A stretch of 64,000 bases of DNA. Source: Okamejei kenojei. Taxonomy: Eukaryota. Shown piece after piece: positions 6,401 through 48,149 of this stretch. The notes beneath the pieces are model-generated. The model saw only the letters and a program-made list of their open reading frames with translations. It was not told the DNA's origin and searched no databases. The stretch covers positions 744,001-808,000 of the forward strand of contig CM069172.1 in the NCBI GenBank assembly GCA_035221665.1. Direction: 5' to 3'. Each line of letters begins with the position of its first letter. The stretch's first letter is position 1. The translations under genes were made by a program, and so were the position numbers.

Positions 6401-7486
6401 CTATGAGAACAATACTTCGAAACCGCTCAACGTGGCCATCCGGGGCTGAAGCGACCCTTTCCATTGCTCAGAGCCAGTTCTTCTGGCTAGACATGCCTTG
6501 CTACTTCCGGGATAGAGTTTCCACGTGCCCTACCTGCAACAGCCTCACACCGCAGCAACAGCGGCAGCCACTCCTGCAGCAGCCAGCTGCTAACCTGCCC
6601 TGGTCTGCGCTAGCAATCGACATCTTCGAGTGGCAGGAATGCACTTCCTGGTGCTTGTTGACTCTTACTCCAGCCGGTTCCCCTCGTTCGTACCTCGTCA
6701 ACCACGATGGCAGGGTGTACCGCCGGTCCCGCCAGCATCTCCGGCTCGTGAACGAGCCTCTCCCTCCCGGCAGCTCCGTATTCCCCCCCCCCCCTGCCAC
6801 TATCGCGGCCCAGTGCTTTGCGCGTTCCTCTGGGGTCACCCCCCCTCGTCCTTCTCCTGTCCGCCGCCCGGCTGCGGTCCCGCTTTCTCTGGCTTCCCCG
6901 CCCTTCTCTTCGCCATCCCCCACCCCAATGACTTCGTTGCCCAGGGGTTCTCCTGTCCGTAGCCCCCACCATGCCCCGGCGTCGTCCCTACTTTTTGTTA
7001 GAGGAAAGATGTAGATGATATGTGTATACACCTTTAATTGATAGTAACGTTGTCCATGCTAACCACTCCCCCGCCAGTTAGTATAATTGTAACCCACACG
7101 CCCCTAGCTCCCTCTCTGGTGATCCTGACAGAGCACGTACAACTAGGGCTATATGATGTTAACGAAGAAACTGCAGATGCTGGAGAATCGAGGGTTACAC
7201 AAAATGCTGGAGAAACTCAGCGGGTGCAGCAGCATCTAAGGAGCGAAGGAGATAGGCGACGTTTCGGGTCGAGACCCTTCTTCAGTCTGAAGAAGGGTCT
7301 CGACCCGAACCGTCGCCTATCAAGTCTGAAGAAGGGTCTCGACCCGAAACGTCGCCTATCTCCTTCGCTCCTTAGATGCTGCTGCACCCGCTGAGTTTCT
7401 CCAGCATTTTGTGTAACCCTAGGGCTATATGATGTATGATTAATAAAGTAGTGAAGTCCTAAAGGTGTCTGTGAACCGTCTCTACA
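3423..7486 (+). mobile_element. Gypsy/Ty3 LTR retrotransposon (Mag-like), defective
   Basis: TG..CA LTRs at 3423-3623 and 7010-7486. 5-bp TSD GTCTC (3418-3422, 7487-7491). PBS-like TAGCGTCAGAAGT at 3624 and PPT AGAGGAAAGA at 7000-7009. gag-pol from 3706 has zinc knuckles, protease VDTG, RT IVDD, RNase H CDAS and a deleted integrase. Confidence 0.95.
7160..7418. mobile_element. Palindromic Penelope-derived insertion with hammerhead-ribozyme-like cores, inside the 3' LTR
   Basis: Absent from the 5' LTR. 17-bp TSD CTAGGGCTATATGATGT (7143-7159, 7419-7435). Inverted arms at about 7191-7285 and 7326-7420. Contains CTGAAGA-stem-GAAAC motifs. Confidence 0.8.
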
Positions 7487-9060: not shown

Positions 9061-9477
<417 letters not shown>

Positions 9478-9500
9478 ACTCGGAACCAAGGACAACAAAA

Positions 9501-9541
9501 GGCTCTTTTAAGAGCCACCAATCCGGCAGTGGAAAGAGCTG
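9501..9541 (+). terminator. Histone stem-loop and U7-binding HDE (H3)
   Basis: GGCTCT-TTTA-AGAGCC at 9501-9516; AAAGAGCTG at 9533-9541. Confidence 0.93.
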
Positions 9542-10495
9542 TCCCTCCTGTTCGTTTGTCCTCTAACATTATGGTCCCGGCCTTTCTCACCAGAACTGGC
9601 ACCGCAGTCACAGCTGCCGAGCGGAGTCTGACCCCACGGACTCCAGTGTCCCGGACGGACCTGGTCGCCATGTGAATCCCTTAGTGACGCGTTCTGATCT
9701 AAAGAACAGGTCTTTGTTACGCATTTTCCGCGGGTTCGGCGCTTCACAAAAACAGCGAGTGGCTTTGAAACAGCCTTTGGGTCACTGGGTTGTATTTTTC
9801 CTTCATGTGCTTTGCCCAGCTGTTTCTTATCCCTTTATAGCGGAGGCCCGGGCTATCAGCGGGACTTTGTTGAGCAGGGTTCCGCGCTCGCTGTTGCTGA
9901 ACGGAATCACACGTCGCTGATCCAACGTCTCGGGTAGATCTATTGATGTTATAAATCTCATAACGACTCAAAATGTGTGTACGCGACCCGAGCAAACCAC
10001 GCCGGCTGAGAGGTCGTCTGCCCCATTGTGGAGCACTCTGCTTTCACCGACAACAAACACCAATAAAGCGTGAAAAATAACCGTCGGCCCCGCAGATATT
10101 GCACCAACCCACTCAATTTTAAAGAATGCAACATCGAAATTCATAAACAAGGATAACACTTTTTATTCTGTGATTAATGGTAAGATTTACATAATTTACA
10201 CGTTATACAGGAATTGCAGTGTTTAGCATATCAGCTAACCAATGAAAGTGATGTAAAATTCAACATATTTCAAACAATGATAGCCCCACCCCTGCTTCCC
10301 TAAAGAACACAATGTACAACGTATATACAATTATAAATACATTGTCATTTGCAATATTTTGTGCGGCTAACAATCAGAATTTCAGACTATGTATATAAAC
10401 GGGTGTATTCCTTCAAATACATAATTTAAGAAAATTATATACATTACTAATGTGCTACTTCTTGAACTTTCTTACACTTCCTTTTAACTTCCTTC

Positions 10496-15660: not shown

Positions 15661-15806
15661 TGGCCAGGCGAAGTATTCAAAGTCAAAGTCAATTTTATTC
15701 GTCACTTACACCCAAAGGTGCAGTGAAATGAATTTGCCAGCAGCGGTTCACTTAAAGACCACTCAATACACAATAAAATTGAACACAAACATCCACCACA
15801 GCATTC

Positions 15807-15944
15807 GTGGAAATTTGGGGGAAAGAAATGTCTAAACTGTATTGATCTATTGTACAGCCTCCGAAAATGTCGGATGGATTTTCCGCAAGGTTAATGTATT
15901 GTATATATTTATCATTCGAATAAAGTATATTTTGAAATTAAAAA
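15807..15944 (+). mobile_element. Short 3'-end copy of the Tx1 family
   Basis: Matches the 3' UTR at about 21131-21270. A-tail and 12-bp TSD ACCACAGCATTC (15795-15806, 15945-15956). Confidence 0.9.
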
Positions 15945-15952
15945 ACCACAGC

Positions 15953-15990
15953 ATTCTTACCTGGCAGGGGAGAGACTTTGATCACCAAGG
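15953..15990 (+). pseudogene. RNU1: U1 snRNA 5' fragment (nt 1-38), retro-copied
   Basis: ATTCTTACCTGGCAGGGGAG..GATCACCAAGG versus U1 ATACTTACCTGGCAGGGGAGATACCATGATCACGAAGG. Confidence 0.88.
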
Positions 15991-16040
15991 ATACTTACCT
16001 GGCAGGGAGAAACCGTGATCAAAAAGGCTGTGCTCCCAGG
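15991..16040 (+). pseudogene. RNU1: U1 snRNA 5' fragment (nt 1 to about 51), second variant
   Basis: ATACTTACCTGGCAGGGAGA..GATCA..AGG..TCCCAGG. Confidence 0.9.
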
Positions 16041-16094
16041 ATCGCTTCTCGGCCTTTTGGCTAAGATCAAGTGTAGTATCTGTTCTTATCAGTT
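16041..16094 (+). pseudogene. RNU2: U2 snRNA nt 1-54 as head of Tx1 copy A
   Basis: Exact vertebrate U2 5' end including the GTAGTA branch-point recognition sequence. The rest of U2 is absent. Confidence 0.95.
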
Positions 16095-19000
16095 CTGAGT
16101 GAAAGAGACTATCTGTTCTTATTAGAAAAGTTCTGCCGGTTCCTTGGGGACAAGGGCCGTGGATTGCGGAGCGAAATCGTCGAGGAGTCGGTCGGCTGCA
16201 GACTTAGAGGTGGATCCATGCTGGTTGGGAAACCAACCTAACACCTTATTCAGCCACAATGTCAGCAGGAGCAGGAGTGCAGGGTTTTTAGAATACCCTG
16301 CGAATAAGCGTCAAGGACCTCTGCAAGGGGACCCCCTTCTCACGAGACCTGTTCATGAAGGTCTTGCTAGAGGCCTGTAAATTTGAGGCCAAGGACATCT
16401 ACTGCCTCCAGGATTTTCCGGGTAACGGATATTTTGACGTTACCCTCAAGTATCCAACGGGATGGCAGAAGGTGATGGAAGTCTTCCTGGAGAGGGGAAA
16501 TGAAGCTCCACTGTCGCTGCTTAAAGTGCAGCTGCTCTTCACCCTCCCCACCCAGAAGGAAAGGTTCATTACGGTGCACATGTTTAACCCACATGTGCCC
16601 GTAGTGGATGTCCTCACCTTCCTTGCTCGCTACGTTGAGGGAACAGGAGACTGTGTGGACATGAAGGACATGCACGGGATTTGGACCAGCAAGCGGCAAT
16701 TTAAGGTAAAGCTGAGGGTGGACAAGGATGGAGAAATTGTCCACCCCCCCTCGGTTTTCGCGATTGGAGGAAACCAAGAATACTTGAGCTATGTAGGGCA
16801 ACCCAGGCTGTGCAGGAAATGCAACAAGCCTGGGCATGTGATGGCCCAATGCACTGCAGGTGTCTGCAAAAACTGCAAGGCGGAGGGCCATGAGACAAAG
16901 GACTGTCAGGCCAGCAAGAACTGCAACCTGTGCGGGGAGGCAGGCCACCTTTACAGGGCTTGCCCTAAAAGAGCCTGCACCTATGCACAGGCAACAAGAG
17001 GGGCTGCTGCCAGCACCCCAAAGGGGGGCGAGGCACCCCCCACCACTGCCAAGACCCCATCAGAAAGAGGGACCACGGATGAGGACAGCCCAACCACCTT
17101 GAGGCCCCAAGTGCCAGAAGGAGACGCCCAGCATCCTGCCCAGGAGGGAGAGTCGATGGAGGGGGGGGGGAACAGCAGGACAAATGGACAACGGTGAAGT
17201 ACAAGAAGAGGGATCAGCCCAAAGAGCCGAGGCCGGAAAGAGTGGTAAGTCAAGAAGTAAATCACAAAAAAGGTGTCTTTCTCTTACAGAAGGCAGCAAC
17301 CTCTCCTCCTCGTCGGAGGATGAGGCGACCGGGAAGTCCCAACGAGGGAGGCAGAGGAAGAAAATGGGGGAGGAAAAGATGATCACTTCCCAGCCTCAGG
17401 AGACCGAGAGCAGAGAAGTGGCCGAGGGGCTCCAGCCCCAGGACATCGGGAGCAGCGCAGTGGTCGAGGGGCTCCAGCCCCTGGAGACAGGAATCATCAC
17501 AGCGGCCAGTGGGCCCGAGCTCTGGGCGACCGGGAGCATTGCAGCGGCCCATGGGCCCCAGCTCCGGGCGACCGGGAGCAGCGCAGAGGCCATTGCGCTC
17601 CAGCTGCAGGAGACAGAGGAAGCGGCGTGCCCAAAAGGGGATGGAACGAGAAGGCCCCCCCCAACGACACCTTTGGTTACGCCACCTGATACTCACCTCA
17701 CCGCTGGATTCCTGAGCCCAGGAAAGCTGAGGCAATTCACCGAAGCGGTGGGAATGAGGGGACATGGAAATGGTCAGTGACTCTAAAGACAATGGAGCTC
17801 AAACTGGCATCTTTAAACGTGCGCAGTATAAAGAGCTCTGCGCGATGTGTTAATGCCTTACAGTACCTGGCCAAGGTCAAGGCAGATGTGACTTTTCTTC
17901 AGGAGTGCGGGCTGCCACACCTCCACTGCTATCTGAGGTGGTTGCGATGGTGGCCCCACGGACTGTCTGTGTGGTCGGGGGGGAATGACTGTCGTGCTTC
18001 CGGCCTGGGGATTTTGCTGCGGGGTGGGAACTTCACCATCACTGAGGTCAGGGAAGTGGTTGGAGGGCGTCTCCTCGTGGTGGATGTTATGTACCATGGC
18101 TCTCTGCTCCGGCTGATAAATGTGTATGCCTCACCCACGCAGAGCGAGCGGCTGGCCGTTCTCCAGCAGCTCCCAGTGCTGCTGGCCACGTCCCGGCAGC
18201 TCGTTCTGGCCGGTGACTTCAACTGCATCATTGATGCGGCTGGACGATCCGGCAGTGCCGACAGCAGACTGGACAGCACGTCCAAGTTCCTGATGGAGAT
18301 GGTAAAAGACGCAAAGCTGCGTGACGCCTTCAGCGACCCTGCAGGCGGGTCCCAGCCGCAGTTCACCTGGTCGAGATCGGACGGTTTAGTCCGATCTCGG
18401 ATAGACTTTGTCTTCACGACGAAGGCCGTCACGGTGAGACACACTGACCTCACGCCAGTGTTCTTCTCTGACCATTGCCTCCTTCAGGCTTCCTGTCACT
18501 TACAGGAGGACCGGAAGGCAGGCAGAGGGACACTCTGGTGGGAAGCAACCAAGGAGTACATTAAGAGGTTCTTCATAATTAAAGGGGTTCAGAGAGCAAG
18601 ACAGAGCCAGAGGGAATTGTGCCTACTCCAGACAGATTTGCAACAACTGCTCCTTCTGCAGTCGAGTGGGGTGGATGTGAGGGAGGAACTTAGAGAGTTG
18701 AAGGACCGGCAAGCTCAGCTCTTCGCCTCTGAATCCTCCAAGATCATCTTCCGATCCAGGGTCCGTCATGTGGAGCAGGATGAGAGGTGCTCACGTTTCT
18801 TCTTCCATAAAGTTCACAGGGGGAGCTCTGTGATGAACACTTAGGGAGGAGGACGGCACGGTAGCATCCTCACAGACAGACATGCTGAGGATCTGCAAAT
18901 CCTTTTACACAGATTTGTAGGACCAAAAGACCACAGACAGTATCTCCTCCCAGAACTTCCTGTCCACAATCAATGAGGTTTTGGAGGACAGCAAGCGGGA

Positions 19001-21286
19001 GAGTCTGGACCAACCACTGACCCTAGAGGAGCTGACTGCTCCATCCGTTCCTTTGACTTGAATAAACGTCCCGGAAGCGATGGCTTACGGGCCGAGTTGT
19101 ATTTGGCTCTGTGGGACTGGATGGGCCCGGACCTGCTAGAAGTGTACAACGACATGCTTCTAGCTGGTAGCATGTCAGACTCCATGAGGAAGGGCAACAT
19201 CACCCTAATCTACAAGCAGAAGGAGGAGATGAAGGACATAAAGAATTGGAGACCCATAACACTCTTGAATGTAGACTACAAGATTCTGTCTAAGGCCATC
19301 GCCAACTGGGTCAAGTCTGCTCTGGGACAGGTGATCCACCTGGACCAAACCTGTGCTGTACCTGGCAGGAAAATCTCAGACAGCCTAGCACTGCTGAGAC
19401 ATACCATCGCCTACGTGCAGGGCAGACGGGTGGATGCCTGTCTAGTCAGCTACGACCAGGAGAAGGCCTTCGACAGGATTTTGCACACGTACATGAGGGA
19501 CGTGCTCTTCAAAATGGGATTTGGGGAGGGAATCAGGAATTCGATCAAACTGTTCTACACCAACATCCGTAGTGCAGTCCAAATCAATGGATGGGAATCA
19601 GACAGTTTCCCTGTAAGGTCTGGAGTTAGGAACGGTTGCCCTCTCTCTCCTGTCTTGTTTGTCTGCTGTATTGAACCTTTTGCCGAATCCATCAGGAAGG
19701 ATGCTGGCATAAGAGGAGTGACATTGCCAGGCAGTGGGGGCATTCAAGTAAAGACCTCCCTGTACATGGACAATGTCGCTGTCTTCTGCTCGGATCCAGG
19801 GTCGGTCCGCAGACTGATTAGTATCTGCGACCAGTTTGAGTCGGCCACGGGAGCCAGGGTGAACCGCAGGAAGAGCGAGGCCATGCTCTTTGGCAACTGG
19901 ACCGACAGATCTTCCGTCCCCTTCACCATCAAGCCTGACTTCTTGAAGGTGCTGGGGATCTGGTTCGGGGGGGCTGAGGCATGTAACAAAAATTGGCTGG
20001 AGCGGATAGCCAGGGTGGGGAGGAAGCTGGAGCTGTGGAGGCAATACTCCCTCTCCATAGCGTGAAAGAATTTGGTCATCAGGTGTGAGGTGCTCTCGGG
20101 GCTGCTGTACTGGGCACAAGTGTGGCCTGTCCCTCCCTCATACGCCACAGGGATCACTCGGGCCATCTTCCAGTTCATCTGGGGGTCGAGGATGGACCGG
20201 GTGCGAAGGGCCACAATGTACAAGTCAGCAGACAACGGGGGTAAAAGCGTGCCCAAAGTCGCCCTCATTCTGATGGCCACCTTCGTGTGTGGCTGCATCA
20301 GGCAGAGTGTAGAGTCAAGGCACGTGGGCACCAAGTGTCACTACCTGCTGAGGATCTACCTGTCCCCGGTGTTGAGAAGGATGGGCCTGGCTCAGGGTCC
20401 CTGGTACGCTTTAGAAACATAGAAACATAGAAATTAGGTGCAGGAATAGGCCATTCAGCCCTTCGAGCCTGCACCGCCATTCAATATGATCATGGCTGAT
20501 CATCCAACTCAGTATCCCGTACCTGCCTTCTCTCCATACCCCCTGATCCCCTTAGCCACAAGGGCCACATCCAACTCACTCTTAAATATAGCCAATGAAC
20601 TGGCCTCAACTACCCTCTGTGGCAGAGAGTTCCAGAGACTCACCACTCTCTGTGTGAAAAAAGTATTTCTCATCTCGGTCTTAAAGGATTTCCCCCTTAT
20701 CCTTAAGCTGTGACCCCTTGTCCTGGACTTCACCAACATCGGGAACAATCTTCCTGCATCAGAGGACACGGTGATTTACGGACTGTTCCCAGGGACACAT
20801 TCAGAGGCTGACATCGAGTGCTGCTGGAGGGTCATCAACTCGGTAAAAGACGCCCTTTGGTCTGCCCGGGCATTGTTCACCACCCAGCTGAGCGAGATGT
20901 GCGTCAGGGAATGTTGCCGACTGGCCCGCTGCAGACTGCAGGAGTACGTGCTGAGGGACGCACTGATGCTCGGTACAGCCAACGCCAAGGCTCGGTGGGG
21001 GAGGGCCACAGTCTAAGGTCCTTCCGCTGCTGGAAATGGGGGGCACGGTATGGTGGAGACGTCCCTCAATATAAGGGAAGGTTTCCCACGCCATTGTGCC
21101 ACATGAGTGGCACGAGTGGGGGACTGATTTGTGGAAATTAGGGGAAAAGAAATGTCGAAACTCTATTCATCAATTTGTACAGCCTCCGAAAATGTCGGAT
21201 GGATTTTCCGCAAGGTTAATCTATTGTATATATTTATCATTTGAATAAAGTATATTTTGAAATAAAAATTAAAAAAAAAATAAAAA
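16095..21286 (+). mobile_element. Tx1/Keno-like non-LTR retrotransposon, copy A (both ends present, disrupted)
   Basis: ORF1 at about 16259-17780 with three CCHC knuckles. ORF2 from 17792 with APE endonuclease (GDFN, SRID, SDH) and RT (WRPITLLNVDYKIL, YMDN). Poly-A tail. TSD ATTCTT (15953-15958, 21287-21292). Confidence 0.93.
20412..20760 (-). mobile_element. Young CR1 3' fragment nested in Tx1 copy A
   Basis: Reverse complement of the CR1 tail; replaces part of Tx1 ORF2. Confidence 0.9.
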
Positions 21287-24596: not shown

Positions 24597-27053
24597 TCTA
24601 AAGACAATGGAGCTCAAACTGGCATCTTTAAACATGCGCAGTATAAAGAGCACTGCGCGATATGTTAATGCCTTACAGTACCTGGCCAAGGTCAAGGCAG
24701 ATGTGACTTTTCTTCAGGAGTGCGGGCTGCCACACCTCCGCTACTATCGGAGGTGGTCGCGATGGTGGCCCCACGGACTGTCTGTGTGGTCGGGGGGAAA
24801 TGACTGTCGTGCTTCCGGCCTGGGGATTTTGCTGCGGGGAGGAAACTTCACCATCACTGAGGTCAAGGTTGGAGGGCGTCTCCTCGTGGTTGATGTTATG
24901 TACCGTGGCTCTCTGCTCCGGCTGATAAATGTGTATGCCTCACCCACGCAGAGCGAGCGGCTGGCCGTTCTCCAGCAGCTTCCAGTGCTGCTGGCCACGT
25001 TCCGGCAGCTCGTCCTGGCCGGTGACTTCAACTGCATCATTGATGCGGCTGGACGATCCGGCAGTGCCGACAGCAGACTGGACAGCACGTCCAAGTTCCT
25101 GATGGAGATGGTAAAAGATGCAAAGCTGCGCGACGCCTTCAGCGACCCTGCAGGCGGGTCCCAGCCGCAGTTCACTTGGTTGAGATCGGACGGTTTAGCC
25201 CGATCTCGGATAGACTTTGTCTTCATGACAAAGCCCGTCACGGTGAGACACACTGACCTCACGCCAGTGTTCTTCTCCGACCACTGCCTCCTTCAGGCTT
25301 CCTGTCACCTACGGGAGGACCGGAAGGCAGGCAGAGGGACGTGGAAGTTAAACACAAAACTGTTGACCCCAGAGAATGTCGAGGAGCTAAAGAGGGACTA
25401 CGCATGTTGTAGAACGGTGAGGCCCCTCTTTGATTCCCCCACACTCTGGTGGGAAGCAACCAAGGAGAACATTAAGAGGTTCTTCATAATTAAAGGGGTT
25501 CAGAGAGCAAGACAGAGCCAGAGGGAATTGTGCCAACTCCAGACAGATTTGCAGCAACTGCTCCTTCTGCAGTCGAGCGGGGTGGATGTGAGGGAGGAAC
25601 TTCGAGAGTTGAAGGACCGGCATGCTCAGCTCTTCACCTCTGAATCCTCCAAGATCATCTTCCGATCTAAGGTCCGCCATGTGGAGCAGGATGAGACGTG
25701 CTCACGTTTCTTCTTCCATAAGGTTCACAGGGGGAGCTCTGTGATGAACAGCCTTAGGGAGGAGGACGGCACGGTAGCATCCTCACAGACAGACGTGCTG
25801 AGGATCTGCAAATCCTTTTACACAAATTTGTATGACCAAAAGACCACAGACAGTACCTCCTCCCAGAACTTCCTGTCCTCAATCACGGAGGTCTTGGAGG
25901 ACAGCAAGCGGGAGAGTCTGGACCAACCATTGACCCTAGAGGAGCTGACTGGCTCCATCCGTTCCTTTGACTCGAACAAAACTCCCGGAAGCGATGGCTT
26001 ACCGGCCGAGTTGTATTTGGCTCTGTGGGACTGGATGGGCCCGGACCTGCTAGAAGTGTACAATGACATGCTTCTAGCTGGTAGCATGTCAGACTCCATG
26101 AGGAAGGGCAACATCACCCTAAGCTACAAGCAGAAGGGAGAGATGAAGGACATAAAGAATTGGAGACCCATAACACTCTTGAATGTAGACTACAAGATCC
26201 TGTCCAAGGCCATCGCCAACCGGGTCAAGTCTGCTCTGGGACAGGTGATCCACCCAGACCAAACCTGTGCTGTACCTGGCAGGAAAATCTCAGACAGCCT
26301 AGCGCTGCTGAGAGATACCATCGCCTACGTGCAGGACAGACGGGTGGATGCCTGCTTAGTCAGCTTGGACCAGGAGAAGGCCTTCGACAGGATTTTGCAC
26401 ACGTACATGAGGGACGTGCTCTCCAAAATGGGTTTTGGGGAGGGAATCAGAAATTGGATCAAACTGCTCTACACCATCATCCGAAGTGCAGTCCAAATCA
26501 ATGGGCGGGAATCAGAGTTTCCCTGTAAGGTCTGGAGTTAGGCAGGGTTGCCCTCTCTCTCCAGTATTGTTTGTCTGCTGTATTGAACCTTTTGCTGAAT
26601 CCATCAGGAAGGATGCGGGCATAAGAGGAGTGACATTGCCAGGCAGTGGGGGCATTCAAGTAAAGACCTCCCTGTACATGGACGATGTCGATGCCGACTG
26701 GCCCGCTGCAGACTGCAGGAGTACGTGCTCAGGGACGCACTGAAGCTCGGTGCAGCCAACGCCAAGGCTCGGTGGGGGAGGGCCACTGTCTAAGGCCCTT
26801 CCGCCGCTGGACATGGGGGGTTCGGTATGGTGGAGACGCCCCTCAAAAATAAGGGAAGGTATCCCAGCCACTGTGCCACATGAGTGGCACGAGTGGGGGA
26901 CTGATTTGTGGAAATTTGGGGAAAAGAAATGTCTAAATTGTATTGATCTATTTGTACAGCCTCCAAAATGTCGGATGGATTTTCCGCAAGGTTAATGTAT
27001 TGTATATATTTATCATTTGAATAAAGTATATTTTGAAATATATTAAAAAAAAA
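24597..27053 (+). mobile_element. Tx1/Keno-like copy B (ORF2 start to poly-A, with internal deletion)
   Basis: Open endonuclease-RT frame at 24607-26541, then a frameshift and a deletion after YMDD. 3' UTR and A-tail. Confidence 0.93.
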
Positions 27054-27343
27054 TATAACATAAATAGATCTACCCGAGACGTTGGGTCAGCGGCGTGTGA
27101 TTCTGTTCAGCAACAGCGAGCGCGGAACCCTGCTCAACAAAGTCCCGCTGATAGCCCGGGCCTCCGCTGTAAAGGGATAAGAAACAGCTGGGCAAAGCAC
27201 ATGAAGGATTCACATGGTAACCAGGTCCGTCCGGGACACTGGAGTCCGTGGGGTCAGACTCCGCTCGGCAGCTGTGACTGCGGCGCCAGTTCTGCTAAGA
27301 AAGGCCGGGAACATAAAGTTAGAGGACAATAAACAGAAGGGCA

Positions 27344-27384
27344 CAGCTCTTTCCACTGCCGGATTGGTGGCTCTTAAAAGAGCC
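27344..27384 (-). terminator. Histone stem-loop and HDE (H3 copy 2)
   Basis: Stem-loop at 27369-27384; AAAGAGCTG at 27352-27344. Confidence 0.92.
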
Positions 27385-27407
27385 TTTTGTTGTCCTTGGT
27401 TCCGAGT

Positions 27408-27824
<417 letters not shown>

Positions 27825-29515: not shown

Positions 29516-32500
29516 TCAACTATAGAACCTCAATAGATAGTGACACTTGGTGCCCACGTGCCTTGGCTCTACACTCCACCTGATGCAGCCACACACGAAG
29601 GTTGCCATCAGAATGAGGGCGACGTTGGGCACGCTTATACCCCCGTTGTCTGCCGACTTGTACATTGTGGCCCGTCGCACCCGGTCCATCCTTGACCCCC
29701 AGATGAACTGGAAGATGGCCCGGGTGATCCCTGTGGCGTAGGAGGGAGGAACAGGCCACATTTGTGCCAAGTACAGCAGCCCCGAGAGCACCTCACACCT
29801 GATGACCAAATTCTTTCCCGTTATGGAGAGGGAGCATTGCCTCCACAGCTCCAGCTTCCTCCCCACCCTGGCTATCCGCTCCAGCCAATTTTTGTTACAT
29901 GCCTCAGCCCCCCCGAACCAGATCCCCAGCACCTTCAAGAAGTCAGGCTTGATGGTGAAGGGGATGGAAGATCTGTCGGGCCAGTTTCCAAAGAGCATGG
30001 CCTCGCCCTTCCTGCGGTTCACCCTGGCTCCCGTGGCCAACTCAAACTGGCCACAGATACTAATCAGTCTGCGGACCGACCCTGGATCCGAGCAGAAGAC
30101 AGCGACGTCATCCATGAACAGGGAGGTCTTTACGTGAATGACCCCACTGCCTGGCAATGTCACTCCTCTTGTGCTCGCATCCTTCCTGATGGATTCGACA
30201 AAGGGTTCAATACAGCAGAAAAACAAGACAGGAGAGAGAGGGCAACCCTGCCTAACTCCAGACCTTACAGGGAAGTCCGATTCCCACCGATTGATTTGGA
30301 CTGCACCTGTCCCAGAGCAGACTTGACCCGGTTGGCGATGGCCTTGGACAGGATCTTGTAGTCTACATTCAAGAGTGTTATGGGTCTCCAATTCTTTATG
30401 TCCTTCATCTCCCCCTTCTGCTTGTAGATTAGGGTGATGTTGCCCTTCCTCATGGAGTCTGACATGCTACCAGCCAGAAGCATGTCGTTGTACACTTCTA
30501 GCAGGTCCAGGCCCATCCAGTCCCACAGAGCCAAATACAACTCGGCCGGTAAGCCATCGCTTCCGGGAGTTTTGTTCGAGTCAAAGGAATGGATGGAGCC
30601 AGTAAGCTCCTCTAAGGTCAGTGGTTGTTCCAGACTCTCCCGCTTGCTGCCCTCCAAGACCTCTGTGATTGAGGTCAGGAAGTTCTGGGAGGAGGTACTG
30701 TCTGTGGTCTTTTGGTTATACAAATCTGTGTAAAAGGATTTGCAGATCCTCAGCACGTCTGTCTGTGAGGATGCTACCGTGCCGTCCTCCTCCCTAAGGC
30801 TGTACATCACAGAGCTTCCCCTGTGAACCTTATGGAAGAAGAAACGTGAGCACGTCTCATCCTGCTCCACATGGCGGACCCCGGATCGGAAGATGATCTT
30901 GGAGGATTCAGAGGTGAAGAGCTGAGCTTGCCGGTCCTTCAACTCTCCAGGTTCCTCCCTCACATCCTCCCCGCTCGACTGCAGAAGGAGCAGTTGTTGC
31001 ACATCTGTCTGGAGTTGGCACAATTCCCTCTGGCTCTGTCTTGCTCTCAGAACCCCTTTAATTATGAAGAACCTCTTAATGTTCTCCTTGGTTGCTTCCC
31101 ACCAGCGTGTGGGGGAGTCAAAGAGGGGCCTCACCGTTCTCCAACATGCGTAGTCCCTCTTTAGCTCCTCGACATTCTCTGGGGTCAACAGTTTCATGTT
31201 TAACTTCCACGTCCCTCTGCCTGCCTTCCGGTCCTCCTGTAGGTGACAGGAAGCCTGAAGGAGGCAGTGGTCGGACACGAACACTGGCGTGAGGTCAGTG
31301 TGTCTCACCGTGATGGCCTTCGTCGTGAAGACAAAGTCTATCCGAGATCGGGCTAAACCGTCCGATGTCGACCAGGTGAACCGCGGCTGGGACCTGCCTG
31401 CAGGGTCTCTGAAGGCGTTGCGTTGCTTTGCATCTTTTACCATCTCCATCAGGAACTTGGACGTGCTGTCCAGTCTGCTGTCTGCACTGCCGGATCGTCC
31501 AGCTGCATCAATGATGCAGTTGGTCACCGGCCAGAACGAACTGCCGGGACGTGGCCAGCAGCACTGGGAGCTGCTGGAGAACGGCCAGCCGCTCGCTCTG
31601 CATGGGTGAGGCAGCAAAATCCCCAGGCCGGAAGCACGACAGTCATTTCCCCCCGACCACACAGACAGTCCGTGGAGCCACCATCGCGACCACCTCCGAT
31701 AGCAGCGGAGGTGTGGCAGCCCGCACTCCTGAAGAAAAGTCACATCTGCCTTGACCTTGGCCAGGTACTGTAAGGCATTAACACACCACGCAGTGCTCTT
31801 TATACTGCGCATGTTTAAAGGTGCCAGTTTGAGCTCCATTGTCTTTAGAGTCACTGACCATTTCCATGTCCCCTCATTCCCACCGCTTCGGTGAATTGCC
31901 TCAGATTTCCTGGGCTCAGGAATCCAACGGTGAGGTGAGTTTCAGGTGGCGTAACCAAAGGTGTCGTTGTGGGGGGGCCTTCTCGTTCCACCCCCTTTTG
32001 GGCATGCCGCTTCCTTTGTCTCCTGTAGCTGGGACCGAATGGCCTCTGCGCTGCTCCCGGTCGCCCGGAGCTGGGGTCCACTGGCCGCTGTGATGATCCC
32101 TGTCTCCAGGGGCTGGAACCCCTCGACCACTGCGCTGCTCCCGATGTCCTGGGGTTGGAGCCCCTCGACCGCTGCACTTCTCCCGATGTCCTGGGGCTGG
32201 AACCCCTCGGCCACTTCTCTGCTCTCGGTCTCCTGAGGCTGGGAGGTGATCGTTGTGGCCTCTCTCTTTTCATCCCCCGTTTTCTTCCTCTGCCTCCCTC
32301 GTTGGGACTTCCCGGTCACCTCATCCTCCGACGAGGAGGAGAGGTTGCTGCCTTCTGTAAGAGAAATATACCTTTTTTGTGATTTACTTTTTGACTTACC
32401 CCTCCTTTCCAGCCCTGGCTCTTTGGGCTGACCCCTCTTCCTGTACTTCACCGTTGTCCATTTCTCCTGCTGTTCCCCCTCCTCCATCGACTCTCCCTCC

Positions 32501-33554
32501 TGGGCAGGATGCTGGTCGTCTCCTTCTGGCACTTGGGGCCTCAAGGTGGTTGGGCTGTCCTCATCTGTGTTCCCTCTTTCTGCTGGGGTCTTAGCAGTGG
32601 TGGGGGGTGCCTCGCCCCCCCCCTTTGGGGTGCTGGCAGCAGCTCCTCTTGTTGCCTGTGCGTAGGTGCAGGCTCTTTTAGGGCAAGCCCTGTAAAGGTG
32701 GCCTGCCTCCCCGCACAGGTTGCAGTTCTTGCTGGCCTGACAGTCCTTTGTCTCATGGCCCTCCATCTTGCAGTTTTTGCAGACACCTGCAGTGCATTGG
32801 GCCATCACATGCCCAGGCTTGTTGCATTTCCTGCACAGCCTGGGTTGCCCTACATAGCTCAAGTATCCTTGGTTTCCTCCAATCGCGAAAACCAAGGGGG
32901 GGTGGACGATTTCTCCATCCTTGTCCACCCTCAGCTTTACCTTGACTTGCCGCTTGCTGGTCCAAATCCCGTGCACGTCCTTCACATCCACACAGTCTCC
33001 TGTTCCCTCAACGTAGCGAGCAAGGAAGGTGAGGACATCTACTACGGGCACATGTGGGTTAAACATGTGCACCGTAATGAACCTTTCCTTCTGGGTGGGG
33101 AGGGTGAAGAGCGGCTGCACTTTCAGCAGAGACAGCGGAGCTTCATTTCCCCTCTCCCGGAAGGCTTCCATCACCTTCAGCCATCCCGTTGGATACTTGA
33201 AGGTAACGTCAAAATATCCGTTACCCGGAAAATCCTGGAGGCAGTAGATGTCCTTGGCCTCAAATTTGCAGGCCTCTAGCAAGACCTTCTTCACGAACAG
33301 GTCTCGTGAGAAGGGGGTCCCCTTGCTGAGGTCCTTGACGCTTATTCGCAGGGTATTCCGAATACCCTGCACTCCTGCTCCTGCTAACATTGTGGTTGAA
33401 TAAGGTGTTAGGTTGGTTTCCCAACCAGCATGGATCCACCGCTAAGCCTGCAGCCGACCGACTCCTCTACGATTTCGCTCCGCAATCCACGGCCCTTGTC
33501 GCCAAGGGACAGCCAGAACTGTTCTAATAAGAACAGATAGTCTCTTTCACTCAG
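29516..33554 (-). mobile_element. Tx1/Keno-like copy C (5' end present, 3' truncated)
   Basis: ORF1 from 33390 with three CCHC knuckles. ORF2 endonuclease/RT pieces down to about 29520. Highly similar to copies A and B. Confidence 0.93.
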
Positions 33555-33608
33555 AACTGATAAGAACAGATACTACACTTGATCTTAGCCAAAAGGCCGA
33601 GAAGCGAT
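33555..33608 (-). pseudogene. RNU2: U2 snRNA nt 1-54 as head of Tx1 copy C
   Basis: Exact reverse complement of U2 nt 1-54. The flank is histone spacer, not a U2 promoter. Confidence 0.95.
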
Positions 33609-34103
33609 GTTATAAATCTCATAACGACTCAAAATGTGTGTACACGACCCGAGCAAACCATGCCGGCTGATTGCACTTCGGCCCCATTGTGGAGCACTCT
33701 GCTTTCAGCGACAACAAACACCAATAAAGCGTGAAAAAGAACCGTCGGCCCCGCAGATATTGCATCAACCCACTCAATTTTAAAGAATGCAACATCGAAA
33801 TTCAAAACACTTTATATTTCTGTCATTAATGATAAGATTTACATAATTTACGTTATACAGGGATTGCAGTGTTTCACATATCAGCTAACCATTGAAAGTG
33901 AAGTAAAATTCAATGCATTTCAAACAATGATAGCCCCACCCCTGCTTAACTTAAAGGAGAAAATGTCCAACGTATATACAATAATAAATCAATTGTCATT
34001 TGCAATATTTTAAGCACGGGGAGCGGTTCTGAACTGGCACCGCAGTCACAGTTGCCGAGCGGAGTCTGACCCCACGGGCTCCAGTGTCCCTGACGGACTT
34101 GGT
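33609..34103 (+). repeat. Duplicated histone-unit spacer fragments
   Basis: 33609-34010 matches about 9948-10360; 34031-34103 matches about 9593-9664. Confidence 0.85.
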
Positions 34104-36725: not shown

Positions 36726-37100
36726 TGGCTCTCAAGACTGAATTTTCATGACTTTAACAATTACATTGATATTCAGACTCACTGTTTCATATTTTAATTA
36801 TCTTTGCGTCTGTCAAAAGCTTTTCTTGATAAGCAATGGCCGGCGGTGGTTACAGAAAGGGGGAGAGAAGGTGGGGCGTTAGGACCAGAGGGAAGGGAGT
36901 TACAGAGACAGGGAATTGGCCTCTAGGGGCTGTAGGGGAGAAGGTTATGGGCGGGGCCAGAGGGGAGAGGGGGTTACAGAGGGAGGTGTAGGGGCCCAGC
37001 GTGTGAGGGTGTGTGTGAGAACGGTGCACAGGGAACATCATGAAGTGTGTTTGTGTCGGTCCCCAGGTATGTGTGTAATTAATATATATATATATATATA

Positions 37101-38708
37101 CAGTGGCTTGCAAAAGTATCCATACCCCTTGAGCTTTTCCACATTTTGTCATGTTACAACCACAAACGTAAATGTATTTTATTGGGATTTTATGTGATAG
37201 ACCAATACAAAGTGCCACATAATTGTGAAGTGGAAGGAAAATGATACATGGTTTTCAAATTTTTTTACAAATAAATAACTGAAAAGTGTGGCGTGCAAAA
37301 GTATTCAATTCCCTTTACGCTGATACTCCTAAATAAAATCCAGTGCAACCAATTGCCTTCAGAAGTCACCTAATCAGTAAATTAGGTGACTTCTGTGTGT
37401 AATCTAATCTCAGTATAAATACAGCTGTTCTGTGAAGGCCTCAGAGGTTTGTTAGAGAACATTAGTGAACAAACAGCATCATGAAGCCCAAGGAACACAC
37501 CAGACACGTCAGGGATAAAGTTGTGGAGAAGTTTAAAGCAGGGTTAGGTTATAAAAAAATATCCCAAGCTTTGAACATTTTACGGAGCACTGTTCAATCC
37601 ATCATCTGAAAATGGAAAGAGTATGGCACAACTGCAAACCTACCAGGACATGGCCATCCACCTAAACTGACAGGCTGGGCAAGTAGAGCATTGATCAGAA
37701 CCGCAGCCAAGAGGCCCATGGTAACTCTGGAGGAGCTGCAGAGATCCACAGCTCAGGTGGGAGAATCTGTCCACATGACAACTATTAGTTGTGCACTCCA
37801 CAAGTCGGGCCTTTATGGAAGAGTGGCAAGAAGAAAGCCATTGTTGAAACAAAGCCTTAAGAAGTCCAGTTTGCAGTTTGCCACAAGCCATGTGGGGGAC
37901 ACAGCAGACATGTGGAGGAAGGTGCTCTGGTCTGATGAGACCAAAATTGACTTTTTGGCCTAAATGCAAAACGCTATGTGTGGCGGAAAACTAACACTGC
38001 ACATCACCCTGAACACACCATCCCCACTGTGAAACATGGTGGTGGCAACATCATGCTGTGGGGATGCTTTTCTTCAGCAGGGGCAGGGAAGCTGGTCAGA
38101 GTTGATGGGAAGATGGATGGAGCCAAATACAGGGCAATCTTGGAACAAGTCCTGTTAGTCTGCAAAAGACTTGAGAATGGGGCGGAGGTTTACCTTCCAG
38201 CAGGACAACGACCATAAACATATAGCCAATGCTACAATGGAATGGTTTAGATCAAAGCATATTCATGTTAAAATGGCCCAGTCAAAGTCCAGACCTAAAT
38301 CCAATTGAGAATCTCTGGCAAGACTTGAAAATTGTTGTTCACCAACGCTCTCCATCGAATCTGACTGAGCTTGAGCTATTTTTCAAAGAAGAATGGGCAA
38401 AAATTTCAATCTCTAGATGTGCGAAGCTGGTAGAGACATACCCCAAAAGACTTGCAGCTGTGATTGCAGTGAAAGGTGCTTGTACAAAGTATTGACTCAG
38501 GGGGGTATGAATACTTTTGCACGCCACACTTTTCAGTTTTTTTATTTGTAATAAAATTTGGAAACCTTGTATCATTTTCTTTCCACTTCACAATAATGCA
38601 CCACTTTGTGCTGGTCTATCACATAAAATCCCAATAAAATACATTTACGTTTGTGGTTGTAACATGACAAAATGTGGAAAAGTTCATGGGGTGTTTTGCA
38701 AGCCACTC
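37101..38708 (+). mobile_element. Tc1 transposon, Passport-like, full length, inactive
   Basis: TA flanks and about 200-bp TIRs starting CAGTGGCTTGCAAAA. Transposase at 37481-38495 ([19 protein letters not shown]) with stops and frameshifts. Confidence 0.93.
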
Positions 38709-38719
38709 TATATACATTT

Positions 38720-43006: not shown

Positions 43007-43771
43007 CTGCGATTGGGGAGGGGGGGAGAGAGAGAGTGAGATAATGTTAGACTTGGAGCAGGTGGAGAGGGAAGGTGGGAGAGAGGGAAAGGGGGGAGAG
43101 ATGGGGTTAAGGGAGGAGGTCATATGGGGAGGGTGAGAGAGAGAAGGAGAAGGTGTGGGTGGAGAGAAAAGTGAGAGGGCGATAATGTTAGAAATGGAGG
43201 TGAAGGGGGAGAGAAGGAGGAGAGAGTGGAAGGAGGGAGGGAGAGCGGAGGGGGTGATAGGAAAAACAGAGAGGGGGGAAAGGAGAATGGTGAAATGTGG
43301 TTTTGAGGGAGATGGTGGGAGGAGAGAGGGAGGGATGGTGTGTTGGAAAGCACGATGGAGAGGGTGAGGAATGAGAGAGATAACTTTAAATAATGAGGTG
43401 ATGAAGGGAGGGGAGGGGGGTCGTGGGAGGGAGGAGGAAGCGATAGGGAATAGGAGGGGAGATGAGCGAGGGGAGAAAAAGGGAGAGAATCCATATTACT
43501 GATCTGCTGTGGCTGCAAGTGAGCCATATCCCTCCAGTCCTGCATTTCCATTTGCTGATCTAAAAGTCTCCTGAACACCACTAGCATAGTGCCTTCCAGG
43601 TCCCAAACCTTAGTGTAATTAAACTTGCGCCGCACACCTCCTTTAAACTTTACCCCTCTCACCTGAAAACTATGCCCTCTAGTCTTTGATGTTTCCACCC
43701 TGCAAGGAATACGTTCTGATTGTTTATTCTATCTCTGCCTCTAATTCCTGTGATACCAGTTCATGGATCTA

Positions 43772-45357
43772 AGTGGCTTGCAAGTTTTCATACCCCTTGA
43801 ATGTTCCACATTTTGTCACGTTACAATCACAAACATAAATGTATTTTATTGGGATTTTATGTGATAGACCAACACAAAGTTGTGCAAAATTGTGAAGTGG
43901 AAGGAAAATGATACATGGTATCCAAATTTTATTACAAATAAAAAACTGAAAAGTGTGGCGTGCAAAAGTATTCAGCCCCCCTGAGTCAATACATTGACTC
44001 TCCCTGTAGAACCACCTTTCGCTGCAATTACAGCTGCAAGTCTTTTGGGGTATGTCTCTACCAGATTTGCACATCTAGAGACTGATATCTTTGCCCATTG
44101 TTCTTTGCAAAATAGCTCAAGCTCAGTCAGATGGAGAGCGTCTGTGAACAGCAATTTTCAAGTCTTGCCAGAGATTCTCAATTGGATTTAGGTCGGGACA
44201 TTGACTGGGCCATTCTAACACATGAATATGCTTTGATCTAAACCATTCCATTGTAGCTCTGGCTGTATGTTTAGGGTTGTTGTCCTGCTGGAAGGTGAAC
44301 GTCCACCCCAGTCTCAAGTCTTTTGCAGACTCTAACAGGTTTTCTTCCAAGATTGCCCTGTATTTGGCTCCACCCATCTTTCCATCAACTCTGCCCCTGC
44401 TGAAGAAAAGCATCCCCACAGCAAGATGCTGCCACCACCATGTTTCACAGTGGGGATGGTGTGTTCAGGGTGATGTGCAGTGTTAGTTTTCCACCACACA
44501 TAGCGTTTTGCATTTAGGCCAAAAACATCAATTTTGGTCTCATCAGACCAGAGCACCTTCCGCCACATGTTTGCTGTGTCCCCCACATGGCTTGTGGCAA
44601 ACTGCAAACGGGACTTCTTATGGCTTTGTTTCAACAATGGCTTTCTTCTTGCCACTCTTCCATAAAGGCCCGACTTGTGGAGTGCACAACTAATAGTTGT
44701 CCTGTGGACAGATTCTCCCACCTGAGCTGTGGATCTCTGCAGCTCCTCCAGAGTTACCATGGGCCTCTTGGCTGCTTCTCTGATCAATGCTCTCCTTGCC
44801 CGGCCTGTCAGTTTAGGTGGACGGCCATGTCTTGGTAGGTTTGCAGTTGTGCCATACTCTTTCCATTTTCGGATGATGGATTCAACAGTGCTCCGTGAGA
44901 TGTTCAAAGCTTGGGATATTTTTTTATAACCTATCGCTGTTTTAAACTTCTCCACAACTCTATCCCTGACCTGTCTGGTTTGTTCCTTGGGCTTCATGAT
45001 GCTGTTTGTTCACTAATGTTCCCTAACAAACCTCTGAGGCCTTCACAGAACAGTTGAATTTATACTAGTCACTTAATTTACTAATTAGGTGACTTCTGAA
45101 GGCAATTGGTTGCACTGGATTTTACTTACGGGTATCAGAGTAAAGGGGGCTGAATACCTTTGCACGCCACACTTTTCAGTTTTTTATTTGTAAAAAAATT
45201 TGAAAACCATGTATCATTTTCCTTCTACTTCACAATTATGCGGCACTTTGTGTTGGTCTATCACATAAAATCCCAATAAAATACATTTACGTTTGTGGTT
45301 GTAACGTGACAAAATGTGGAACAGTTCAAGGGGTGTGAAAACATTTGCAAGTCACTG
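43772..45357 (-). mobile_element. Tc1 transposon, Passport-like, in the last AID intron
   Basis: TA flanks and long TIRs. Transposase from 44997 (MKPKEQTRQVRD..GRPPK..WSDETK), frameshifted. Confidence 0.93.
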
Positions 45358-45401
45358 TATGTAACATCTTTGTAAATTTTCTCTGCACTCGTTCCAGCTT
45401 A

Positions 45402-47320
<1,919 letters not shown>

Positions 47321-47323
47321 TAC

Positions 47324-47742
47324 CTGTGTACCCCATGACCCCCAGACTGACCCCCGCCCCTCTCAGCTTCCGGAGACCCCCGGGGTGGGGTCCGGAGCCC
47401 TCGCAGTAGTAGAGTCTGGCCACGAATAGGCGGAGAGTGAGATTGGGCCATCGCTGGAGGAAGGAGGCGAGGCGGAGGGAGCACTGGGCGCAGGGACTCC
47501 AGGAGGCGTAGAGGGTGAGGCACAGGGGCCTGAAGGGGTCGAGGGGCCAGCCGGACAGTATCCGGAGGAGCAGCACCTCGGCGTGGTAGCCCGGAATATT
47601 CCGCAGGTAGCCGAAGTCCAGCGAGCGGGATACTGGGCTGTCCCGGCGCTCCAACACGTAACACAGATATGTTTCATGCCTCCCCTTTGCCCAGCGGGCA
47701 TTGGTGAAGTGGTACAGGAACTTCTTCTTGCTCATCAGGCAG
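47324..47742 (-). CDS. AICDA: AID catalytic exon (equivalent to human exons 2+3)
   Basis: 419 nt, CAG acceptor and GT donor. WAKGR.ETYLCY, RRDS, HAE, SWSPCxxC and ARLY motifs. In-frame ATG at 47735. Confidence 0.96.
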
Positions 47743-47749
47743 CTGTGGG

Positions 47750-47792
<43 letters not shown>

Positions 47793-48149
47793 AAAGAAGG
47801 AGAAAAAAGAGTGAAACTTCCTCCACGGAGCTGCATCACCGACTCCTCCCGTATGTTGTAAGCGCGCACCAACATACATTGGAGTGAAGCTCCATCCGCA
47901 CCGTCCTGTCCTCCCCCAAGTGGCCACACACACACAGACTGAAGCTCCCTCCGCACCGGCCAGACTTTACCCCCCAAACCCCCACCGATCTACTCTATCT
48001 CTCTCCCTACCTCTCTCTTTCGTTCTCGCTCTTCCCCCCCCCCCCTCTCTCTCTCTCACACACACACATAGAGTGAAGCTGCGCTGTGCCGTCTCTCTTT
48101 TCTCTCTCCCTCTCACACACATGCATGCAGACACAAACAATGAAGCTCT

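Follow-up and report, generated by a model that had tools for sequence, protein, structure and literature searches.

The window, by which we mean the whole stretch of 64,000 nucleotides analyzed here from Okamejei kenojei (contig CM069172.1, positions 744,001 to 808,000), contains copies A to D of a LINE, together with histone H3 copies, a deaminase exon and other mobile elements. The features are as follows.

33555..33608, minus strand: head of copy C, U2 snRNA nt 1-54 (exact 54-nt match to host U2; Rfam U2)
33391..33554, minus strand: 5′ UTR of copy C, with the 4-nt linker of the window head type and the element start at about 33550 (sequence reading)
31942..33390, minus strand: ORF1 of copy C, with two ZCCHC3-like RNA-binding domains and CCHC zinc knuckles (PF23057, PF23058, PF00098; start codon position)
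29523..31941, minus strand: remains of ORF2 of copy C, AP endonuclease and reverse transcriptase (RT) (PF03372, PF00078; map on a full-length copy)
33609..34011, minus strand: 5′ flank of copy C, spacer downstream of a histone H3 gene (89% to 9945-10360; no U2 promoter match)
33607-33614, minus strand: partner of the 8-bp duplication of copy D, at the 5′ junction of copy C (comparison with the empty site)
24597..27053, plus strand: copy D, from the ORF2 start to poly(A), internally deleted
27054..27061, plus strand: 8-bp target duplication behind the poly(A) of copy D (comparison with the empty site)
9946..9953, minus strand: empty C/D target site in the H3 downstream spacer (sequence comparison)
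15803..15944, plus strand: copy B, a 140-bp 3′ end with poly(A) (sequence; map on a full-length copy)
15956..15991, plus strand: outermost head piece of copy A, U1 snRNA nt 4-39 (100% over 36 nt to host U1 variant L098)
15991..16041, plus strand: second head piece of copy A, U1 snRNA nt 1-52 (98% to host L277, 96% to L102)
16041..16094, plus strand: third head piece of copy A, U2 snRNA nt 1-54 (exact match; Rfam)
16095..21285, plus strand: body of copy A, with ORF1 from 16259 (early stop), ORF2 from 17792 (frameshifted) and poly(A) at 21285
5348-7014, plus strand: LTR retroelement remains, RT-RNase H and integrase zinc finger (Pfam)
9061-9542 (plus strand) and 27343-27824 (minus strand): two histone H3 copies, each with a 3′ stem-loop, lying in units that are duplicated and inverted (Rfam/Pfam and self-comparison)
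37092-38717 and 43763-45363: Tc1/mariner-like element, two copies, having inverted ends of about 210 bp (transposase HTH at 44332-45009)
47193-47966, minus strand: AID/APOBEC-like deaminase exon (best Pfam NAD1, E 4e-37)

Every element copy in the window is broken. The body of copy A is interrupted by a foreign repeat at about 20397-20759, and ORF2 of copy C has internal deletions and has lost its 3′ end. A preliminary description of this DNA had stated that copies A and C both begin with U2 nt 1-54. The U2 heads of the two copies are indeed exact over 54 nt when compared with the host U2 gene and diverge after that point, and Rfam placed its U2 matches in the window at 16041 (plus strand) and 33608 (minus strand); however, copy A does not begin there, as two U1 5′ pieces precede its U2 piece. 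The description was right about the flanks. The 300 bp upstream of the host U2 gene found no match in the window, so that neither copy A nor copy C has a U2 promoter ahead of it, and U2 nt 55-191 found none either; the 5′ flank of copy C matches DNA downstream of the H3 gene, placing this copy against histone spacer; and the poly(A) tails ending at 15944, 21285, and 27053 are each followed by non-U2 DNA in place of the rest of U2.

Copies C and D overlap in about 2 kb of the element and are 96-97% identical over two long blocks of D. Because the 5′ flank of copy C and the 3′ flank of copy D are the halves of one empty site (9946-9953), C and D mark one insertion site; we infer that this site was likely duplicated and inverted after a single insertion. 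A target specificity for histone spacer was considered and rejected, since the six homologues of the site lie on one contig and comprise the C half, the D half, the empty site, and three others that are unsplit. Copy B is flanked by 12-bp direct repeats (15795-15806 and 15945-15956), and a candidate target duplication for copy A was rejected, its overlap being only 6 bp. The layout of the 5′ UTR of copy C was repeated in all 30 best-hit loci. Within this UTR a short inverted repeat lies at 33519-33539 (minus strand), one arm of which is a second copy of U2 nt 37-48 (33528-33539), possibly an old target duplication.

The element is about 5.5 kb long and, according to Pfam, encodes ORF1 with two ZCCHC3-like RNA-binding domains and CCHC knuckles and ORF2 with an AP endonuclease and an RT. 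The endonuclease is of the AP type (PF03372, PF14529), and poly(A) tails and target duplications are present. In pairwise comparison the RT was 52-53% identical to amphibian RT proteins and 42% identical to a Danio protein annotated as "transposon TX1 uncharacterized 149 kDa", and no protein named Keno was found among the RT database hits or cluster members. By its ORF domains, poly(A) tail and target duplications the element is probably a Tx1-clade LINE, which we file as Keno-like: it behaves like Keno and matches the Keno site but lacks the U2 specificity of Keno.

We scanned the genome (2.76 Gb) and counted 3′ ends by a 16-nt anchor at the element 3′ end, which occurred 2,132 times against 5 for the control. 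Exact patterns for U2 head junctions were found 240 times genome-wide and not once in a reversed control, and the heads are thus not due to chance. Counting by eye the 100 junctions listed of the 240, we found 36 window-type heads (U2 to nt 50 or 54 plus a linker), 34 heads of U2 1-47 plus TT, 22 heads of U2 1-49, and eight of other kinds. Four exact patterns assigned a target to 143 of the 2,132 3′ ends, and most insertions are without an assigned target. The window copies are dead, off-target copies of a mobile element.

The host U2 genes cluster on contig C37. U2 follows directly behind 22 of the 2,132 element 3′ ends, starting at nt 38/39 (n = 5), nt 37 (n = 4), nt 35/36 (n = 11), or nt 33 (n = 2); all starts thus lie within U2 nt 33-39. 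Four of the 22 copies share one 5′ junction and are likely later array duplicates. Among 16 promoter-plus-U2 starts, 10 were uninterrupted genes, five led into a full-length element, and one led into a truncated element; L139 is a sixth full-length copy behind a U2 promoter. The target duplication in the promoter-linked copies is U2 35-47 or 35-49. These results bear out two proposals of the preliminary description, namely relaxed specificity (strongly so, at an on-target ratio of 22/2,132) and master copies embedded in U2 genes (six full-length copies behind an intact U2 promoter, with a transduction in L253, described below, that shows an embedded source). It had further expected copies preceded by a promoter and followed by U2 nt 55 onward; promoter-linked copies exist, but U2 resumes behind them at nt 33-39. 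U2 promoter DNA was present in none of 30 heads sampled by coordinate, and U2 followed the 3′ end in none of 30 best hits and none of 30 copies sampled by coordinate.

All six promoter-linked U2 copies carry the two young head types, and none has the window head type. Off-target copies with the two young head types are 0.3-2.7% from a promoter-linked copy, while window-type copies are 2.2-7.4% from one and the window types are 3.6-5.0% apart from each other. The window head type is older than the two promoter-linked head types, and no U2-promoter-linked copy of it is left. The tree and distances were based on 60 of 70 rows, 10 having been dropped for aligning over fewer than 1,000 bases; resolution of the tree is poor, with support for 7 of 57 inner branches, and indel errors are visible in the assembly. 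A shared head gives no direction, as a headed copy could itself have landed on the target. In the more diverged relatives L121, L122, and L260, U2 resumes behind the element at nt 46 or nt 28; these are possibly older subfamilies with shifted sites.

U2 is one of several insertion sites. U1 from nt 33-42 stands directly behind 16 of the 2,132 3′ ends. One full-length copy, L324, reads in order U1 promoter, U1 1-55, U1 1-49, U2 head, body, and U1 41-164; U1 41-55 is duplicated, and a stacked head thus lies in place behind a U1 promoter. A direct lead-in from U1 to the element was found at one of 20 U1 starts examined. In U3, poly(A) was followed by U3 nt 37 in 2 of 11 Rfam hits, and in U4, element junctions lay at nt 33 and nt 37 among 18 hits. 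At two of six U5 loci, internal element pieces were followed by U5 from nt 37, and no element 3′ end was seen in U5 among the six; U5 as a target is suggestive only. At the U5 genes L346 and L348 (contig C8), an intact U5 precedes internal pieces of the element together with repeated remainders of U5 that begin at nt 37-41. Outside the snRNA genes, eight element 3′ ends lie a few bases ahead of a motif located 70 bases past the start of the TATA box of an LTR. If transcription starts 28-30 bases past TATA, the LTR insertion site would be at about +34 to +42; at 4 of 30 LTR loci an element occupies this site and the TATA box is intact. No 3′ end was found in U6, a weak control in that about 4 of the 30 fetched U6 loci look like genes, and none at the H3 start codon, likewise a weak control with one exact H3 pattern.

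Several U1 genes (L330, L331, L325-L327, and L328 on contigs C582, C309, C30, and C33, respectively) show long duplications reaching from U1 nt 35-41 to the 5′ junction, with lengths of 348 bp, about 340 bp, about 210 bp, and at least 808 bp, respectively. Such long duplications leave an intact U1 gene in front of the element, and four copies are stacked in this way on C30. The host U1 variants L091-L103 and L276-L295 differ in stem-loop I, some with paired changes, and each has its own flanks.

With 97 element 3′ ends, the commonest site is one position in a likely Penelope-like ORF, within its antisense 3′ part. This site accounted for 10 of 60 junctions sampled by coordinate against a background of about 0.25%, and all 18 of 18 hits shared one orientation. 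At one hot-spot locus (L108:2539-3158), support for a GIY-YIG domain was weak (Pfam E 0.13), and L182 holds only 48 bp of hot-spot DNA, perhaps a 5′ transduction. Insertions also recur at a site inside the RT of another LINE (L005, L065, L069, L213, and L358).

The descent of dispersed copies from embedded ones can be followed in several cases. In L253, on another chromosome, the poly(A) at the element 3′ end is followed by U2 38-153 and then by another poly(A), and a target duplication encloses all of it. L334, located in the Penelope-like site, continues with the U1 remainder and about 45 bases from downstream of it before a second poly(A). L335, which sits in Tc1-like DNA as judged by eye, has a window-type head, the U1 remainder with its flank, and an exact target duplication of 11 bp. 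Since in these three dispersed copies the poly(A) is followed by the remaining part of U2 or U1, embedded copies were their sources. Transduction signs were present in L334 and L335 and absent in six of the eight U1-remainder copies tested. In L335 the 5′ U1 piece and the 3′ remainder belong to different variants, which proves the source but not the origin of the 5′ piece. At the other end of the element, L274 begins about 27 bases past an LTR TATA and has both U1/U2 head junctions in common with the LTR-embedded L273, its sister in the tree (95/84). U2 genes, U1 genes, and one LTR have each launched daughters.

These daughters bear on the idea that every dispersed copy, the window's included, came from masters inside U2 genes and depends on the U2 promoter. 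The full-length copies embedded in U2 with their close off-target relatives are in accordance with it, as is the U2 3′ transduction, and U2 units may be missing or collapsed in the assembly. However, the U1-derived and LTR-derived daughters (L334, L335, and L274, if read as transductions) contradict it, the window head is absent from the promoter-linked copies among the 16 starts, and copy A has U1 pieces outside its U2 head, making such an exclusive origin very improbable. The preliminary description had likewise proposed continued dependence on the U2 promoter, which did not hold for that promoter alone: the window head occurs in none of the six promoter-linked copies, sources lie in U1 (L335) and in an LTR (L273/L274), and insertions are found in U1, U3, and U4. 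Judging from sequence, the family likely depends on borrowed promoters and not on that of U2 alone; the 5′ ends suggest that the U2 promoter would be among those driving element RNA.

Building on the observed insertion sites, target duplications, promoter-linked full-length copies, and 3′ and 5′ transductions, we consider it probable that this Keno-like Tx1 LINE inserts 33-42 bases inside U1, U2, U3, and U4, is likely promoterless and read from the promoter behind which it lands, and likely gains the first 34-55 bases of the host gene as its head. The endonuclease would nick at about +33 to +42, and the other strand would usually be cut 10-15 bases further; the host promoter would then yield a capped RNA composed of the gene front and the element. 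A U2-headed cDNA would rejoin the U2 gene seamlessly by homology, which would result in few fixed U2 head forms, and landing in U1, U3, or an LTR would stack a new piece ahead of the old head. Copy A would be the record of three passages, through U2, then one U1 variant, and then another. About 99% of the 3′ ends lie outside U2, and such copies are likely mostly dead ends. Two points count against this explanation: the Penelope-like hot spot with its 97 ends has no known transcription start, and for the window's own sites a start in front is conjectural.

The pieces carried on the heads were compared with the host genes. U1 or U3 pieces were found on 9 of 30 heads sampled by coordinate and on 9 of 28 best hits, the U3 identity of the head piece being confirmed by Rfam. 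The U1 pieces match particular host U1 variants at 94-100%, and their ends fall at nt 34-54 in 17 of 18 cases, with none beyond, in an RNA of 164 nt; this range corresponds to the insertion window plus a 10-15 bp duplication. In L350, L351, and L355, the U1 pieces are enclosed by target duplications.

Such pieces could also arise if the U2 head is fixed, the element has an internal promoter, and U1 or U3 pieces are added during reverse transcription, with short or cut snRNAs joined on by template switching or by RNA ligation. The junctions of the U1 and U3 pieces are mostly unique, which for U1 favors this alternative; mostly unique junctions in 9 of 30 heads, with one of 20 U1 starts alone linked directly to the element, mean that borrowing at the landing site would need many short-lived sources, which counts against the explanation that we prefer. 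Short microhomologies occur at several joints, and window-type heads make up 36 of the 100 listed, yet no U2-linked copy of them exists. Chimeras of full-length U6 and a 5′-truncated element at 3 of 30 U6 loci (L394, L395, and L399) indicate that this family is open to template switching or ligation as well, and human L1 chimeras with truncated U3 are known (PMC11838501). Identical end positions could also result from short capped snRNA fragments, a further point against our main mechanism. On the other hand, the 3′ transductions prove snRNA-embedded sources, the ends of the U1 pieces coincide with the insertion window, L324 is a stacked head in situ behind a U1 promoter, the L273/L274 pair indicates that an outside promoter was used, and the U6 chimeras show a different pattern, with full-length U6 on truncated elements. 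We therefore consider a fixed head with an internal promoter unlikely, while template switching is possible for the U1 pieces.

How the element finds its sites is a separate question from how it is transcribed. The 3′ junctions in the snRNA genes span +33 to +42 although the target sequences are unlike, and 20-nt target windows of these sites, the LTR included, have a mutual identity of 10-40%. That unlike sequences are hit at an equal distance is suggestive of cutting close to promoter-proximal Pol II, and the LTR insertions argue against a purely snRNA-specific tether; we infer from these positions that targeting may be by position, for example near promoter-proximal Pol II. In its broadest form the proposal, which we regard as evenly poised, is that one LINE family targets by distance from a Pol II start (+33 to +42) and not by sequence, taking in U1-U4, probably U5, and a TATA-type LTR, that it lives on those promoters, and that each passage writes the host front onto its head.

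Concerning the targeting step only, promoter borrowing may hold while a relaxed endonuclease reads several unrelated sequences or shapes, the common distance being partly a coincidence or a survival bias in that multiplication is restricted to copies close behind a promoter. Such an enzyme is supported by the sharp Penelope-like hot spot, for which no start is known, by the second recurring flank within the RT of another LINE, by the lack of hits at the H3 start, and by the preference of crocodilian Tx1-Mar families for two unlike Mariner sites (PMC4494074). However, 5′-truncated copies, which are unable to multiply, are found at this very distance (+33 to +42) in U1, U2, U3, and U4, and the identity among targets is no higher than chance level, which renders this account somewhat unlikely.

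If true, distance-based targeting would explain both the making and the transcription of snRNA-headed LINEs and SINEU, and it would represent a natural promoter-proximal integration system. One AP-endonuclease LINE at five unlike sequences and one distance would point to tethering to, or opening by, the transcription machinery. The genome holds the intermediates, namely full-length copies linked to the promoters of U2 and U1 genes, and daughters with the downstream part of the host gene, and insertion plus read-out is a testable alternative to template switching. In the literature searched, represented mostly by titles and abstract openings, we found no report of Tx1 tethering to transcription machinery, of a single Tx1 family that inserts in U1-U4 equally far from the start, or of snRNA genes giving rise to transductions; the supplementary Tx1 flanks of PMC4494074 may bear on this novelty. 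According to the parts of the literature consulted, the U2 site of Keno, U1/U2-headed Tx1 families, and relaxed U2 specificity in Utopia are already known.

Keno belongs to the Tx1 clade, is U2-specific, and has a 3′ flank from U2 nt 38/39 (PMC4640811, PMC6136364, PMC4494074). Our element is likewise an APE-type Tx1 LINE with tandem copies inside U2 genes, and 5 of its 22 on-target junctions are at the nt 38/39 printed for Keno. Unlike Keno, it has 17 of the 22 junctions 1-6 nt further upstream, about 99% of its 3′ ends outside U2 with insertions in U1, U3, U4, and an LTR as well, and dispersed full-length copies that retain the U2 head.

The crocodilian U1/U2-headed Tx1-Mar families (Tx1-2_Crp, Tx1-2B_Crp, Tx1-4_AMi, and Tx1-11_Crp), to which Keno is the sister group, are another point of comparison, and the same paper lists a U5-targeting Tx1 family in the legend of its Fig. 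3 (PMC4494074). Like Tx1-Mar and SINEU, our element has U1- or U2-derived 5′ ends, a preference for a site in another transposon, and repeated addition of U1 pieces, the ends of theirs varying over about 22 nt (PMC4494074). That paper notes that snRNA genes are without an internal promoter and leaves the transcription of snRNA-headed retroposons open, proposing flanking promoters. It ascribes the additions, including the SINEU-2 extensions, to template switching and its text names no snRNA-embedded source, whereas embedded promoter-linked copies and transductions are present here. The element has no preference like that for Mariner-N4 in Tx1-Mar, its recurring flanks being a likely Penelope-like element, an LTR, and another LINE, and unlike the short, non-coding SINEU it is about 5.5 kb long with two ORFs.

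Utopia is a U2-targeting LINE of the RLE type, with intact U2 genes upstream of its insertions in Phytophthora (PMC4640811). It shares the U2 site with our element, some Utopia families have relaxed specificity, and intact U1 genes lie upstream here. In contrast to the restriction-like endonuclease and single ORF of Utopia, our element has an AP endonuclease and two ORFs, and the off-target sites described for Utopia resemble the U2 sequence, while those found here do not. The U1-targeting elements in the consulted part of PMC8869645 are DNA transposons only. In U6/LINE-1 and U3/LINE-1 chimeras, sense small-RNA pieces stand at the 5′ end, with full-length U6 on truncated L1 (PMC11838501). The three full-length U6 chimeras of our family are of this kind; in contrast, its U1, U2, and U3 fronts of 34-55 nt are found on full-length elements and match the insertion window. 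R2 elements have a Pol I host, one strict target, and ribozyme release. They are co-transcribed with 28S rRNA (PMC4494074), and by analogy the element described here would be, as R2 is, a promoterless element read from its host gene.
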